Shown: positions 57,395 through 61,435 of the stretch, piece after piece
Layout of the letters: every line of letters starts with the position of its first letter
How positions within the stretch are numbered: the stretch's first letter is position 1
NCBI GenBank assembly: GCA_017958225.1
Contig: JAGDDD010000003.1
Location: 8,752 to 72,751 of the forward strand
DNA length: 64,000 bases
From: Alphaproteobacteria bacterium
GTDB lineage: Bacteria; Pseudomonadota; Alphaproteobacteria; CAAHEQ01; UBA3637
Direction: 5' to 3'
Notes under the pieces: generated by a model
The model's input: the letters and a program-made list of their open reading frames with translations, nothing else
Told to the model about the DNA's origin: nothing
Database searches by the model: none
Position numbers and translations under genes: made by a program

Positions 57395-59533
57395 TTAACT
57401 CAACTGTATTTTTGCCAAAAGTTCATTTTGCTCGGCAAGTTTGCGTTGGACCAGGCTTTCCGGCGTGGGAGGTGCCGGCGGTATAGCTGCTTTTACTTTC
57501 ATTTTGGCATGTTTGAAAAAGAGTGGCGAGTTCGCGCGCAACGGGCGGTTGGCGTATCCTGTCAGCAAATCCCATTGCTTGTCTACGGCCAAGCCGAGCA
57601 CACCGGTACCACCGACCACAGAATCTTTCATGTATTCGCGTCCGCCCTTGAGGTGCATAAAGGGTTTGACCTTTTTACCAAAGCCCACATTGATTTTGCT
57701 TTTCTTTTCCACGCGGTGCGACCAGTTGCCCAAGCCGGCCAACATTTTTTGACGCGTTTGCGGGTTGTTGTGGCGCTTGATAATCTTACAGCCCACAGAG
57801 CTGAGAATAATATCCGTTGCGTTTTGTCCATAGACGGAAGAAATCTGGTGCCAGTCCTTCACACATACCAGGAAAATATTGTATTTTGAACGCCCAAAAG
57901 TAATACCGTCTGTAATACTTTGCAGTTTGGGCATGCTCTCAAAGTTATCCAAAATAAACTCAACGGGGAAGGGGCCGGAGCCTTGTTCGTTGGGGCCCGC
58001 GCTCATCAAAAAGGCAGATACCATATTGATGAACAGGCTACACACATCGCCGCCTTCGCGGTTGATATAAACCGTAATGGGCTCGTATTTGCCGGTTTTG
58101 GGGTTTTTCATCCCGCGCAAGTCTTTGTAGGAAATATCTGTGGAAGCGGTGCGGTTGCGAATAGCCAGGTTTTTGAAAGGATTCAGACCACGCTCGGCCA
58201 TAGAAATGACGGATGATCTTTGTTTGTCGGGCAGAGAGAACACCTGGTTGATTTCCAACAAAGCGCGTCGCGAATAGCCATAATAGAAGGTCTCATTGAC
58301 CAAGCAATCCAGGATGTTTTGCCACACATCCGCCATGACAGCGCTTTCGTCGCCGGCCTGTATCTTTTTGCGTAAGGCTAGGCTTTCCTGAAACATCCAA
58401 TTGTTGAGCAGGTCAAGCAGCATACCGAAAGAGGCTTCTCGGCCGACCCAGTTTTGCGGTAAATGTCCCCATGAGCCGACCGCCACATAATCATCGCCAA
58501 CAAAGGTGCCAGCTTGCAGTTTTTCAATCGCCTGTTTGACTTCCGGCGTGGGCTGCATACCCATGTAGTAACTGAGCAAAACCTCTCTATCTTCTGCGTC
58601 CAGGCAATTGTTGGCTATTCTGTCCAGAAAATAATCGTTGGCTTGTGCTTGCTCGACTTTGCTGGTGATAAAAATAGTCAGGCCGCACAGCGCGCCACGT
58701 CCCGTTCTTACCCAATACGGGTCAGAGCCGGAAGGTCCGTCAGGAATCAAAAACTGCACCAGGCTGTCAATATAGGTTTCGCGTCCGGAGCCGGCCGGTG
58801 GCAAATTGCCTTTGCCAAGCGGGTTCCAACAGGGGTAATACAGTTTCTTGTCGGGTCGGTCTATCAAAGAAAAGTCCATTTGAAAGGTCGGCCCTAATGT
58901 TGCACGATAACCGCTGGTGGCTTTGGCAATTTCACCCGACGGGTCAAAGATAAACAGACACGCATTGTCATTGTATAAGACATTAGGGATAACAACGCCG
59001 GCCGTTTTGCCGGACAAAGGCGCACCGATACAGAAAGCAGAACGCGGCTCTGTCATACGCATGGGCGCACCATTTTTATATTCACCGATATAGAGATATC
59101 GGCCCTTGAACAAGCCCATTTTTTCTACTTCCGTCAAGCGTGCTTCATGAGCGGATCCGTGATATTGCGGGCCATATTCAAACGGATTCATGACCACATA
59201 ATAAGCCAGGTAGAAACCGGCCAGGGCTAACGGTAACAAAGGCAAACGCCAGCCGGCAAAAGACGCCCAAGTAAAATGTATGGGCTCTTGTGTGATGAAA
59301 TCGCTCAACCAAAGGACATAGACCTTAAAGGCCAAGAACGGGTTGTGGAGCAGGGCGCCGGCCAGTTTGGCGGCACTCATATCTTTTAATATATTGGGCG
59401 CCAGGGCCACGCAGAAGGGGGCTAACAACCACCATATGAGCCAGAAAATCAGCACCGCCCGCGCCGCGCGCTTCCAGACGAACATCCACGCTTTTCTGTT
59501 TTGTGCATAATTGGAATCCAAGCGAAATACCAT
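57395..59533 (-). CDS. VirD4/TraG-family type IV secretion coupling protein-like ATPase
   Basis: 712 aa with N-terminal TM helices. YHGSAHEARLTEVEKMGL resembles the family's HGSARWA block. Walker A is GAPLSGKTAGVVIPNVL. The Walker B region ILDNFESMPKL corresponds to the family's LDEF..LG. The downstream block is VKDWHQISSVYG. Confidence 0.85.
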   Translation of the reverse strand: MVFRLDSNYAQNRKAWMFVWKRAARAVLIFWLIWWLLAPFCVALAPNILKDMSAAKLAGALLHNPFLAFKVYVLWLSDFITQEPIHFTWASFAGWRLPLLPLALAGFYLAYYVVMNPFEYGPQYHGSAHEARLTEVEKMGLFKGRYLYIGEYKNGAPMRMTEPRSAFCIGAPLSGKTAGVVIPNVLYNDNACLFIFDPSGEIAKATSGYRATLGPTFQMDFSLIDRPDKKLYYPCWNPLGKGNLPPAGSGRETYIDSLVQFLIPDGPSGSDPYWVRTGRGALCGLTIFITSKVEQAQANDYFLDRIANNCLDAEDREVLLSYYMGMQPTPEVKQAIEKLQAGTFVGDDYVAVGSWGHLPQNWVGREASFGMLLDLLNNWMFQESLALRKKIQAGDESAVMADVWQNILDCLVNETFYYGYSRRALLEINQVFSLPDKQRSSVISMAERGLNPFKNLAIRNRTASTDISYKDLRGMKNPKTGKYEPITVYINREGGDVCSLFINMVSAFLMSAGPNEQGSGPFPVEFILDNFESMPKLQSITDGITFGRSKYNIFLVCVKDWHQISSVYGQNATDIILSSVGCKIIKRHNNPQTRQKMLAGLGNWSHRVEKKSKINVGFGKKVKPFMHLKGGREYMKDSVVGGTGVLGLAVDKQWDLLTGYANRPLRANSPLFFKHAKMKVKAAIPPAPPTPESLVQRKLAEQNELLAKIQLS

Positions 59534-59535
59534 GG

Positions 59536-60498
59536 CTATGTCCTCTTTTTATCCCTCAAAACGCGCGTTTGTTGGGCTTGCGTGTCGATGAGCACCGGAT
59601 TCGTTTCTGTGTCCTGTGTGGCTTTTTTAACCGGTTTTTTCGGTTCGATAGCCTCTTTTTTCATCGCCGGACGTTGTGTTTGCTTTGTTTGTGCTATCAG
59701 ATTTTCTTTGCGCTTGACCTCTTTTTTGGCAAAGGCTTTGAAAGCGTCTTTGCGTTCCATTTCTAATTTCTTGGCCAACAAGATTTGCATTTTTTGACTG
59801 GCCTGTGCCAAGTTCTGTGTCTTTTCCTGTAACTTAAACATAGATTCGTGCGAAAAAAGCGTCAGTTTGCTGATATAGGTGCCGGATAGATTGACCCCTG
59901 TTAAATCAAAGGCCGACAAATCAACATCAGGCACCGCCACACGCGACAAGTCAATCAGCCGCAAATCAAGCATATTCAAATCTTCTTGCGAGAGCATAGA
60001 CAAGTCTATCTTGCCGGATTCAATTTGGCCGATGAGCCACTCCAGCGAGTGAATATAAATCTTTTGCTTTTTATCTAGGCGCGCACCGTCAGTGTCGCAA
60101 TCGCGGTAAAAAATACCATCTAAACAAGCCCCTCTTAAATCGGCGTCGGATAGCACGGTTTGTTCAAAATAGGCATAGGAAAAATCGGCTTGCTGTAAAT
60201 TGCAACCGCTAAAATTGACACCGCTTAAATTGGTCTTGGAAAAGTTGGCTTCAGACAAGTCCAGGCCGGACAGATCCGCGCCTTTGAAATTGACGCCGGT
60301 AAAGTCCATGTCTTTCCACTTTTTGCCCTGCCGCAGTGTATCCACAATTTCCACCGCTGTGGCATCGTGTGTGTAATCTTCTACTTCAAAGGGGCGCAGG
60401 GGAGAATCGATATGAACATAGGGCAAAAAGGCGAACTTATCCGTCTCCTTTAACGGTGTCGGATTGATTTTTTTTGCCGGTCGTTCGTTTTTCGTCAT
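59536..60498 (-). CDS. pentapeptide-repeat protein with a Lys/Glu-rich C-terminal tail
   Basis: 320 aa. There are runs of A(D/N)LxX repeats (DFTGVNFKGADLSGLDLSEANFSKTNLSGVNFSGCNLQQADFSYAYFEQTVLSDADLRGACL, with a second block near residues 180-215). Its stop lies 2 nt before the T4CP ATG, and AAGAGGA sits in its 3' end. Confidence 0.85.
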   Translation of the reverse strand: MTKNERPAKKINPTPLKETDKFAFLPYVHIDSPLRPFEVEDYTHDATAVEIVDTLRQGKKWKDMDFTGVNFKGADLSGLDLSEANFSKTNLSGVNFSGCNLQQADFSYAYFEQTVLSDADLRGACLDGIFYRDCDTDGARLDKKQKIYIHSLEWLIGQIESGKIDLSMLSQEDLNMLDLRLIDLSRVAVPDVDLSAFDLTGVNLSGTYISKLTLFSHESMFKLQEKTQNLAQASQKMQILLAKKLEMERKDAFKAFAKKEVKRKENLIAQTKQTQRPAMKKEAIEPKKPVKKATQDTETNPVLIDTQAQQTRVLRDKKRT

Positions 60499-60511
60499 AT
60501 GCCTTTAACGC

Positions 60512-61435
60512 CTATTTCAGTTGATCACGTAAAGCATACCCGATTTCTTTTCCGTTTTCAAGCAAAACACCCGTATCGGCGCCCGCCTTCAATAACTTAT
60601 TGAAAAAGCGTTTCTTTTTATCTTTGGGCATATGGGCATAATACAGGGCAATCAGTGGCACATTTTTGCGTGTGTAACCGCCTTGGACATTGACATCTAC
60701 CTTGTGTTTTAACAACAGATCTAACGCCTCTTCCGAGCCGGTTTGTATCGCCATCAGCAACGGAGATTGTGTATAGTTATTGACCGACTGATTGACATTG
60801 GCGCCCGCCTCTAACAACGCCTCGGCAATATCTAACGAGTTGTTTTTCAGGGCTAAAATTAACGGTGTGCGCTCCATGCGGTAGCCGCGCGAATTGTAAT
60901 AGGTGTCCGTCACGCTGACGGGAGCCCCCGCTTTGATAAGCAATTTCACCAGGTCGGCGCGTTGGAAATAAACCGCAATAATTAGCATGGCCCAGTGGTT
61001 GCTGTCATGCACAGTGACATCGGCCCCGTGCTTTAACAACAATTTGACCAGCGGGGCATTTTGCATATATAAGGCTTGCGCCAAAGGCACAATAGATCCG
61101 TCTTTGGGGTTAAGCGGTGCGCCCTGTTTAATCAAAGCGGTAATCAAGCGGTTGCGGTTGAGTGTGACCGCCAATGATAAGGCTGTTTGTTTATTTTTGT
61201 TTTTTAATGTCAAGTCGGGATGATATTTCAGCAACAGTTGGCACAGGGCAACAGAACTGTTTTCCACGGCGCACATCAAAGGCGTGTTCCCTTTGCTGTC
61301 GCGGGCGTTGATATCGGCAGTGACAATACCGACAATCCAACTCCAAATGCTGGTGTGGGGGCGTAAAAGTTTCTTGACTTTCTCGGCCTGATTGAGCCGA
61401 ATAGCGTCAAATAATTTGTCGTTAGCGGTTTTCAT
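60512..61435 (-). CDS. ankyrin-repeat protein
   Basis: 307 aa with at least 6 ANK repeats (GNTPLMCAVENSSVALCQLLLKYHPDL, QTALSLAV..., WAMLIIAVYFQRADLVKLLIKAGAPV, RTPLILALKNNSLDIAEALLEAGANV, QSPLLMAIQTGSEEALDLLLKHKVDV). Confidence 0.9.
   Translation of the reverse strand: MKTANDKLFDAIRLNQAEKVKKLLRPHTSIWSWIVGIVTADINARDSKGNTPLMCAVENSSVALCQLLLKYHPDLTLKNKNKQTALSLAVTLNRNRLITALIKQGAPLNPKDGSIVPLAQALYMQNAPLVKLLLKHGADVTVHDSNHWAMLIIAVYFQRADLVKLLIKAGAPVSVTDTYYNSRGYRMERTPLILALKNNSLDIAEALLEAGANVNQSVNNYTQSPLLMAIQTGSEEALDLLLKHKVDVNVQGGYTRKNVPLIALYYAHMPKDKKKRFFNKLLKAGADTGVLLENGKEIGYALRDQLK

Follow-up and report, generated by a model that had tools for sequence, protein, structure and literature searches.

To our knowledge, the only role in which coupling proteins are understood is that of gatekeepers to the machines of type IV secretion and conjugation. 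In Legionella, the gene for the type IV coupling protein (T4CP) DotL is preceded by the gene of a dedicated partner, DotM, which helps to recruit substrates. In Helicobacter pylori, CagZ binds to the all-alpha domain of the T4CP Cagbeta and blocks both hexamer formation and ATPase activity (PMC9886983). In Rickettsia, RARP-2, a protein with ankyrin (ANK) repeats, binds to the T4CP RvhD4 via its C-terminal tail, and cREM-4, which contains a pentapeptide repeat, was recovered as an RvhD4 interactor (PMC11077975). Here, we describe a locus within a 64,000-nucleotide stretch (hereafter, the window) of an uncultured alphaproteobacterium (GenBank assembly GCA_017958225.1, contig JAGDDD010000003.1, positions 8,752 to 72,751), in which an ANK-repeat protein, a pentapeptide-repeat protein (PRP), and a VirD4/TraG-family T4CP are encoded in one minus-strand operon. 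The parts belong to known families; what appears to be new is a chromosomally fixed T4CP lineage that is hard-wired either to a PRP or, in a sister paralog, to NERD-like, HNH-like, and SUKH proteins, away from visible type IV secretion system (T4SS) genes. We consider it an even call that the locus is a vertically inherited chromosomal module composed of a membrane-anchored VirD4-family ATPase and a dedicated cytoplasmic PRP partner, to which the ANK protein was added in the genus of the window.

Conservation of the PRP and T4CP genes

According to the ORF calls, the operon runs on the minus strand from ANK (61435..60512) through PRP (60498..59536) to T4CP (59533..57395), and the encoded proteins have lengths of 307, 320, and 712 amino acids (aa), respectively. 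The intergenic gaps are 13 nt between ANK and PRP and 2 nt between PRP and T4CP, in exact agreement with the tight packing described in the original prediction. The Shine-Dalgarno (SD) sequence of the third gene had been placed within the second, and this was also borne out, as AAGAGGA (59541..59547, minus strand; read from the sequence) lies in the final codons of the PRP gene and 8 nt ahead of the T4CP ATG. By direct reading, the PRP stop codon TAG occupies 59538-59536 and the T4CP start codon ATG occupies 59533-59531.

A scan of species-representative genomes yielded at least 547 relatives of the T4CP, with full lengths of 690-800 aa, from uncultured Alphaproteobacteria of rumen, gut, and fecal metagenomes (record labels Alphaproteobacteria bacterium, Azospirillum sp., and Rhodospirillales). 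Neighboring genes were called and clustered in 86 loci, and the T4CPs were clustered by pairwise identity, which set the PRP-type T4CPs (g3-g5), to which that of the window belongs, apart from the NERD-type T4CPs (g2). Two kinds of operon correspond to these groups, and both were present in two assemblies (loci L011 and L041, and loci L009 and L081). The PRP gene was located directly upstream of the T4CP gene in 17/17 PRP-type loci of the genome scan and likewise in L090-L092, L095, and L096, with PRP-T4CP gaps spanning -1 to +11 nt and PRP lengths of 320-576 aa. The pair persisted down to a T4CP identity of 26-30%. At 29% identity (L095), the gap was 11 nt, and at 30% identity (L096), the two genes abutted at 0 nt, with rarA 2 nt further on. 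At 26% identity (L097), rarA abutted the T4CP gene, and the PRP homolog, 49.5% identical to the PRP of L096, was displaced by 2.5 kb through a two-gene insertion. Among relatives with 43-57% identity, the pair was found in at least five other housekeeping contexts (lspA-pgi-mutL/addAB, obg/rpmF-plsX, lpxC/recR, and others), and the family loci as a whole occupied at least eight different housekeeping contexts. The whole PRP-type branch shows co-inheritance of PRP and T4CP, with translational coupling in all cases but one. Because the relatives share 26-57% identity and stand in differing contexts, a recently spread single element was excluded. That the PRP is inherited strictly 1:1 with its T4CP, is almost always coupled to it in translation, and keeps its place upstream speaks for a dedicated partner and against one of many effectors.

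The original prediction had treated the ANK-PRP-T4CP trio as one cassette, and the survey of relatives did not uphold this, since only the PRP-T4CP pair was kept and the ANK gene was limited to relatives with at least 80% ANK identity. The trio with its uvrA-RNHCP-rarA flank was found in a relative with 87% identity and in one whose PRP was 74% identical, and it was absent from every more distant relative that was examined. The ANK gene was present in L088/89 and L098/99 and was not found in L001, L006, L090-92, L095, or L096. True orthologs of the ANK protein were found only at 80% identity or above, beyond which the similarity was that of generic ANK repeats. Because ANK is confined to close relatives and the PRP-T4CP pair is deep, the trio is a genus-level novelty on an old two-gene unit; by this comparison of sequences, the ANK gene is a recent addition to the older pair. 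Most simply, the ANK protein is a newly recruited, lineage-specific client or accessory protein.

Compared with the 87% relative, the dN/dS ratio was 0.047 for ANK and 0.056 for T4CP; for PRP, dN was similar to that of the other two genes and dS was saturated. The proteins of the trio change three to ten times faster than those of the neighbors rnd, kpsF, lptB, and glyS. All three genes are under purifying selection and are functional, fast-evolving genes, not remnants. A pseudogene or remnant state of the T4CP gene was ruled out by its dN/dS of approximately 0.05 together with its deep conservation.

Several further observations were made on the relatives of the T4CP. Some relatives at 34-38% identity (P0243, P0246, P0249, and P0254) are T4CP homologs of 1000-1170 aa with large extra domains. 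Six family-bearing contigs (L013, L019, L028, L031, L076, and L080) were deposited under Lactobacillales, Limosilactobacillus gorillae, [Ruminococcus] gnavus, and Holdemanella biformis bins, which are probably mislabeled or contaminated.

Features of the encoded proteins

The 712-aa protein (57395..59533, minus strand) was identified from Pfam and AlphaFold2 (AF2) results as a VirD4/TraG-family T4CP homolog of a PRP-associated subfamily. Its original identification as a T4CP withstood the HMM search, in which all three T4CP profiles scored above their gathering cut-offs (GA): PF02534 T4SS-DNA_transf with 105.4 bits (GA 20.1), PF10412 TrwB_AAD_bind with 41.1 (GA 20.5), and PF12696 TraG-D_C with 33.1 (GA 22). 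All matches to the NCBIfam VirD4/TraG/TraD equivalog models were far below their cut-offs, indicating that the protein is a divergent family member. In the AF2 model, which was built from 20 homologs and had a mean pLDDT of 82.6, the best fold match in the Protein Data Bank (PDB) was H. pylori Cagbeta (8DOL; E 6e-16, TMt 0.65), followed by TrwB (E 5e-11, TMt 0.68), with HerA-type translocases far behind. The closest plasmid homologs (26-27% identity; 85-89% of the length covered) come last in complete virB2-B11 clusters on sphingomonad megaplasmids; the T4CP family therefore descends from a bona fide VirD4.

The domain order of the T4CP comprises N-terminal helices, an HGSA motif (residues 125-128), Walker A, an all-alpha domain, a RecA-like nucleotide-binding domain (NBD) fold, and a TraG-D_C region. 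The first predicted transmembrane (TM) helix (residues ~24-47; 59393..59464, minus strand) corresponds to the hydrophobic segment AARAVLIFWLIWWLLAPFCVALAP within the AF2 helix of residues 7-44, from which the TM assignment was made, and the second (residues ~95-115; 59189..59251, minus strand) corresponds to WRLPLLPLALAGFYLAYYVVM, covered by AF2 helices 89-114. The loop preceding the second helix bears the motif EP.H..W.SF, which is kept in the PRP-type subfamily. Walker A reads GAPLSGKT (residues 170-177; 59003..59026, minus strand), and G175, K176, and T177 were invariant in the 20-sequence alignment A1, as were dozens of positions outside this motif. The layout proposed originally therefore held for the two hydrophobic helices, HGSA, and Walker A, but the Walker B motif proved to be degenerate. 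It reads FILDNF (residues 526-531; 57941..57958, minus strand; codons ttt att ttg gat aac ttt) and aligns to the MDEF Walker B of Cagbeta, with the Walker B Asp retained and Asn in place of the catalytic Glu. This position was Asn in the window and the 87% relative, Asp in the relatives with 52-57% identity and in deep members, and Glu in all NERD-type paralogs. Across the PRP-type T4CPs, the Walker A spacer residues were variable and Walker B was DE, DD, or DN. Judged from these motifs, the T4CP of the window probably binds ATP but hydrolyzes it poorly. The loss of Glu in this branch suggests that fast ATP turnover is not needed, so that the protein may serve as a receptor or scaffold with ATP bound.

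When compared with VirD4, TraG, and TrwB (TrwB of R388 and alphaproteobacterial VirD4), the T4CP of the window has in common the membrane helices, HGSA, Walker A, the all-alpha domain, the NBD fold, and TraG-D_C. It differs from them in that VirB4, a T4SS, and a relaxase are not linked to it, its gene lies on the chromosome in housekeeping contexts and is inherited vertically, it has an obligate PRP neighbor, and Asp or Asn replaces the Walker B Glu in much of its branch. The resemblance to the Cagbeta-CagZ pair lies in Cagbeta being the top structural match and in the role of CagZ, which we propose by analogy for the PRP; however, CagZ is all-helical, U-shaped, unique to H. pylori, and not a PRP, and Cagbeta is part of a full Cag T4SS island. 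RvhD4 is likewise an alphaproteobacterial T4CP associated with ANK-repeat and PRP-containing proteins, whereas the RARP-2 and cREM-4 genes are not in an operon with rvhD4 and the rvh T4SS is present. In addition, cREM-4 has approximately 950 aa with only a small internal PRP, unlike the PRP of the window, and the present organism is from gut or rumen with no evidence of an intracellular lifestyle. The DotL-DotM arrangement is similar to that described here in that a partner gene precedes the T4CP gene, but it belongs to a type IVB system with a full Dot/Icm apparatus. No sequence similarity to DotM was detected in the PRP or in the TM+NERD-like protein of the paralog described below.

The PRP (320 aa; 59536..60498, minus strand; Pfam Pentapeptide, 82.5 bits) is the conserved upstream partner of this T4CP subfamily, and its full-length orthologs are confined to this clade. 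In the AF2 model, residues ~60-140 (60079..60321, minus strand; pLDDT 86-94) form a net acidic, right-handed quadrilateral beta-helix core, a second coil region of lower confidence extends to residue ~205, and a helix of approximately 60 residues follows at 210-273. The N terminus is disordered and bears a conserved RP..K motif, and the C-terminal tail (residues 278-320; 59539..59667, minus strand; pLDDT <50) is disordered and basic, ending in ...RVLRDKKRT. The fold matches were MfpA, NP275, and HetL, and the core was superposed on MfpA with an rmsd of 1.6 Å over 89 residues at 36% identity. Equivalence to MfpA or Qnr was not supported by the NCBIfam models, with scores of 53.9 against a cut-off of 360 for MfpA and 42 against 240 for Qnr. 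The net charge was -12 over residues 64-205 and +14 in the region after the core. Among 30 PRP family members, the beta-helix core was acidic (-4 to -17), and the extreme C terminus was basic in 30/30, ending in KKRT, KKRA, NRN, or RQRS.

An acidic PRP rod has the shape of the DNA mimics MfpA and Qnr, topoisomerase-protecting PRPs of ~180-220 aa that consist of the beta-helix only. The PRP of the window shares with MfpA, Qnr, and AlbG the right-handed quadrilateral beta-helix and the acidic surface, but it is approximately 100 residues longer, owing to the RP..K N terminus, the 60-residue helix, and the basic disordered tail, and it is genetically tied to a T4CP and not to gyrase protection. 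A basic, disordered C terminus is also the classic signal of VirB/D4 substrates. When the C termini of both repeat proteins were inspected for such signals, the PRP tail was basic and disordered and the ANK C terminus was not basic, and charge alone is not diagnostic. The ANK protein (307 aa; 60512..61435, minus strand), the lineage-specific product of the first operon gene, scored 119 bits with Pfam Ank_2 and 104 bits with Pfam Ank in five stretches.

The paralogous operon and the genomic surroundings

A paralogous T4CP operon with NERD, HNH, and SUKH components, overlooked in the original prediction, was observed in the same clade (L002, L004, L014, L026, L029, L093, and ~35 further loci; e.g., L026:8034-13183). 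In order, it encodes a short TM protein, a TM+NERD-like protein of ~400 aa, the T4CP, an HNH-like protein of ~210 aa, and a SUKH/SMI1-KNR4 protein of ~150 aa; a DUF6476 gene and two genes of unknown families (c4 and c5) often lie before it. The TM+NERD-like protein combines a membrane domain at its N terminus with a NERD-like domain at its C terminus (Pfam NERD in 13/29 members), and SUKH was found in 24/29 members. In the NERD-type T4CP, the motifs APPGTGKT and DEF are canonical, and the C-terminal tail is acidic. For the ~210-aa family (c2), the best PDB profile match was the HNH motif of the pyocin AP41 DNase, which is a weak match (E 0.36), and no match was obtained with Pfam or NCBIfam. 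Homology between the PRP and the TM+NERD-like partner was rejected because hhalign found no similarity, and a DotM-like identity of the latter was rejected as there was no PDB profile match.

From its predicted gene content, the paralog looks like a T4CP tied to a toxin-immunity pair, suggesting that the whole family serves the export or handling of conflict proteins. With its putative HNH-like toxin and SUKH protein, the paralog, and not the locus in the window, resembles the bacteria-killing T4SS of Xanthomonas (X-Tfe/X-Tfi); however, no XVIPCD domain or virB genes were seen at the paralogous loci, and the toxin assignment is weak.

The window consists of ordinary chromosomal DNA and carries genes for ThrRS, NrdDG, TolC, Pta-AckA, FtsH, Tol-Pal, RuvB, PyrG, SecDF, RecN, LigA, ParC, GlyRS, LptB/C, KpsF, an RNase D-like exonuclease, tRNA-Leu, and UvrA. 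All ORFs with a length of 160 aa or more were read, and nine unrecognized ORFs were run against Pfam, which returned no T4SS-related families; no relaxase or integrase was found among the ORFs read or the Pfam results for the 64-kb window. In tblastn searches with queries from a real alphaproteobacterial virB operon, no VirB2, B3, B4, B6-like, B8, B9, B10, or B11 was found in the window, and the T4CP was the sole match. The tblastn searches likewise found no VirB2-B11 homologs in 1.57 Mb around ~99 family members, and no T4SS Pfam families were found in 12 gene-called neighborhoods. The earlier statement that the window lacks virB/tra genes, a relaxase, and an oriT-like repeat thus stands after ORF reading, Pfam, and tblastn.

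No att-like repeats or duplicated tRNA-Leu 3' end were found in the window, and there was no GC anomaly, the GC content of the locus being 0.47-0.49, the same as that of its flanks. Because T4SS genes, a relaxase, a GC shift, and att-like repeats are all missing from the window, the locus is unlikely to be the edge of a conjugative element. The stand-alone character originally proposed also agrees with the absence of an integrase and with the housekeeping contexts of all related loci examined. Three candidate origins or identities were rejected. The edge of an integrative and conjugative element or island at tRNA-Leu was ruled out by the lack of att repeats, integrase, relaxase, and GC shift and by the synteny of relatives. 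A phage-borne origin was ruled out since no relatives were found in viral contigs (IMG/VR). A known anti-phage defense system was ruled out, as PADLOC gave no match for T4CP, PRP, or the paralog partners and returned generic ANK matches alone.

Literature searches on orphan T4CPs, PRP-VirD4 pairs, and T4SS in these gut Alphaproteobacteria returned nothing specific. The arrangement had not been recognized at the outset either, and no paper describing a PRP-T4CP pairing was found.

Upstream, uvrA begins divergently at 61552 (from the sequence, with Pfam UvrA in the syntenic L088), and the intergenic region that it shares with the operon (61436..61551) contains, as read by eye, the SD sequence AAAGGAG (61448-61442) and an extended -10-like TGcTATACT (61469-61461). 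A consensus scan of this region gave no full sigma-70 match, and the assignment of the operon promoter is therefore tentative. Promoter and terminator scans at the locus gave results no better than those for shuffled sequences, and Rfam returned the tRNA alone, with no regulatory RNA. Downstream, outside the module, lies tRNA-Leu(CAG) (57253..57339, minus strand; ARAGORN and Rfam), followed by a gene for an RNase D-type 3'-5' exonuclease (Pfam). Directly after the T4CP stop codon, the segment 57340-57394 (minus strand) contains a sigma-70-like TTGACT-17-TATAAA promoter-like site for tRNA-Leu. No terminator hairpin was observed between the T4CP stop codon and this site, and read-through from the operon into tRNA-Leu is accordingly possible. 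The flanking genes tRNA-Leu, rnd, and uvrA named in the original prediction were confirmed by ARAGORN/Rfam, Pfam, and the sequence itself.

Genes of DNA metabolism were observed around several family members. A gap of 2-3 nt separates rarA/mgsA from the T4CP stop codon in the two PRP-type members that are deepest (L096:9545-13065, L097:10001-13594), and in the genus of the window, rarA/mgsA lies a few genes away (L088:1512-2819, L098:2483-3778). DNA repair or recombination genes (uvrA, uvrC, mutL, addAB-like, recR, recX, and UDG) were located no more than a few genes from the T4CP gene in 7/9 distinct contexts. The enrichment of such neighbors is marginal, with a roughly estimated binomial p of ~0.04 over contexts that are not independent.

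The organism, an uncultured alphaproteobacterium of gut or rumen, has a complete diderm envelope and an anaerobic metabolism. The window encodes NrdD/NrdG, the anaerobic ribonucleotide reductase, and Pta-AckA (8971-11923 and 14799-17010), which fits an anaerobe of the gut better than an obligate intracellular bacterium. The analogy to the intracellular bacteria Legionella, Coxiella, and Rickettsiales that had been drawn at first was not sustained, as nothing at the locus points to intracellular life.

Elsewhere in the window, the segment 34952-39271 (plus strand) encodes a cysteine-rich protein of 1439 aa that has no Pfam match and whose N-terminal helix resembles that of type IV pilins, and a 168-aa pilin-like protein is encoded at 11948-12454 (plus strand). 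A related giant Cys-rich ORF of 1769 aa with a faint Galaxin_repeat match was observed near the T4CP gene in L093 (L093:1-2985); these giant ORFs may represent a clade family of very large pilin-anchored or secreted proteins. Other sizeable ORFs without a Pfam match are located on the plus strand at 47207-48130 (307 aa, with a Cys-rich N terminus and a Q/E/R-rich coiled coil), 2681-4069 (462 aa), and 51599-52480 (293 aa).

Alternative explanations and proposed mechanism

In the explanation first suggested for the locus, the T4CP would be a receptor that serves a VirB-type T4SS encoded elsewhere, and the PRP and ANK proteins would be its cargo, injected into eukaryotic or bacterial cells. In Rickettsiales, T4SS genes are scattered on the chromosome, and a distant apparatus of this kind would be compatible with the strongly conserved sequence features of the T4CP, its periplasmic loop included, and with the basic tail found in every PRP member. 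The sister paralog, which precedes a putative toxin-immunity pair in the manner of the clients of the Xanthomonas VirD4, and the interaction of RvhD4 with an ANK-repeat effector and a PRP-containing protein (PMC11077975) point in the same direction. However, VirB2-B11 were found neither in the window nor around the family members searched, the ANK protein is limited to one genus and ends without a basic tail, the lineage of the window has lost the Walker B Glu, and a 1:1 association between PRP and T4CP over very deep divergence is unusual for effectors. The basic tails make the PRP a possible substrate, but its 1:1 co-inheritance is a better fit to a subunit or regulator, and we regard the delivery of PRP and ANK by a distant T4SS as unlikely, although it has a real claim to attention.

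A further explanation, which we judge to be improbable, is that the T4CP, a member of the FtsK/HerA-like superfamily, works at the membrane on DNA without any T4SS, for instance by exporting, importing, or processing it or by surveying incoming DNA, and is gated by the PRP as a DNA mimic; in the paralog, the membrane NERD-like nuclease domain and an HNH-like nuclease restrained by SUKH would play the equivalent part. The acidic, MfpA-like core of the PRP, the nuclease-related domains of the paralog partners, the HerA translocases of anti-phage systems as the next fold matches after the T4CPs, and the repair and recombination genes close by in 7/9 contexts, with rarA abutting the T4CP gene in the deepest members, are all in keeping with such a role. 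Nevertheless, PADLOC gave no match, the neighbor enrichment is at the margin of significance, HNH plus SUKH is a standard signature of secreted toxin-immunity pairs and not of a housekeeping nuclease, and no T4CP is known to work without a T4SS. It would also be conceivable that the locus is a decaying remnant of a conjugative element that integrated beside tRNA-Leu, with the T4CP gene becoming a pseudogene and its broken Walker B thereby accounted for. In favor of this are the position beside a tRNA gene, where elements commonly integrate, the Asn in place of the Walker B Glu, and the absence of other T4SS genes; yet the three ORFs are full length with dN/dS of ~0.05, Walker A and dozens of other positions are invariant, many genomes and contexts retain the pair at identities as low as 26-30%, and there is no att repeat, integrase, relaxase, or GC deviation. 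This explanation is effectively refuted by the conservation and selection data, and we assign it a negligible probability.

The reading that we favor, a vertically inherited module of a VirD4-family ATPase and its PRP partner, has to be set against several points that weigh in the other direction. The status of the PRP as a partner is drawn from gene order and co-inheritance, and with its substrate-like basic tail, the PRP could be plain cargo. The change from Glu to Asn or Asp could be tolerated or compensated for elsewhere in the T4CP. The recurrent neighbors uvrA, rarA, recR, mutL, addAB, uvrC, UDG, and recX hint at a DNA-related role, and the HNH assignment in the paralog, at E 0.36 and with no Pfam or NCBIfam match, is weak. 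Moreover, the VirB searches, which found no homologs, covered the window and 1.57 Mb of neighborhoods, and a VirB4-containing T4SS could be encoded elsewhere in these genomes.

In the mechanism that we propose for the favored module, the T4CP would form an inner-membrane ring, and the PRP would be bound to it at a fixed stoichiometry, with its basic tail, its acidic DNA-like rod, or both making the contact. There, the PRP would act as a built-in regulator, adaptor, plug, or first client, comparable with CagZ on Cagbeta or with DotM/IcmSW on DotL. In the NERD-type paralog, a different obligatory protein fills the same upstream position. The copy with the Walker B Asn would be a latched receptor or scaffold more than a motor, and the ANK protein would be a client or accessory protein co-expressed with the PRP-T4CP pair.

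A more far-reaching idea, which is doubtful at present, is that these VirD4-family ATPases work without a VirB4-type T4SS, with the membrane T4CP ring and its obligate upstream partner constituting a self-contained machine that might export toxins or DNA or might gate or survey DNA at the membrane. In one paralog, this partner would be the DNA-mimic PRP, and in the other, which also has the HNH-like and SUKH proteins, it would be the TM+NERD-like protein. If this were true, it would be the first T4SS-independent role for a coupling protein, and the PRP would be the first DNA-mimic regulator of a T4CP.

A common uncultured clade of gut and rumen bacteria holds T4CPs as stable chromosomal genes, with each paralog locked to a non-T4SS partner. 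The natural series of Glu, Asp, and Asn at the Walker B position provides a ready-made set of catalytic variants. If a T4SS is encoded elsewhere in these genomes, the PRP-T4CP pair would represent a new hard-wired receptor-adaptor or receptor-client arrangement and a clean system for the study of substrate recognition; if these genomes contain no T4SS, the VirD4 fold would have a new job. In either case, PRPs, the functions of which are mostly unknown, gain a defined candidate molecular partner.

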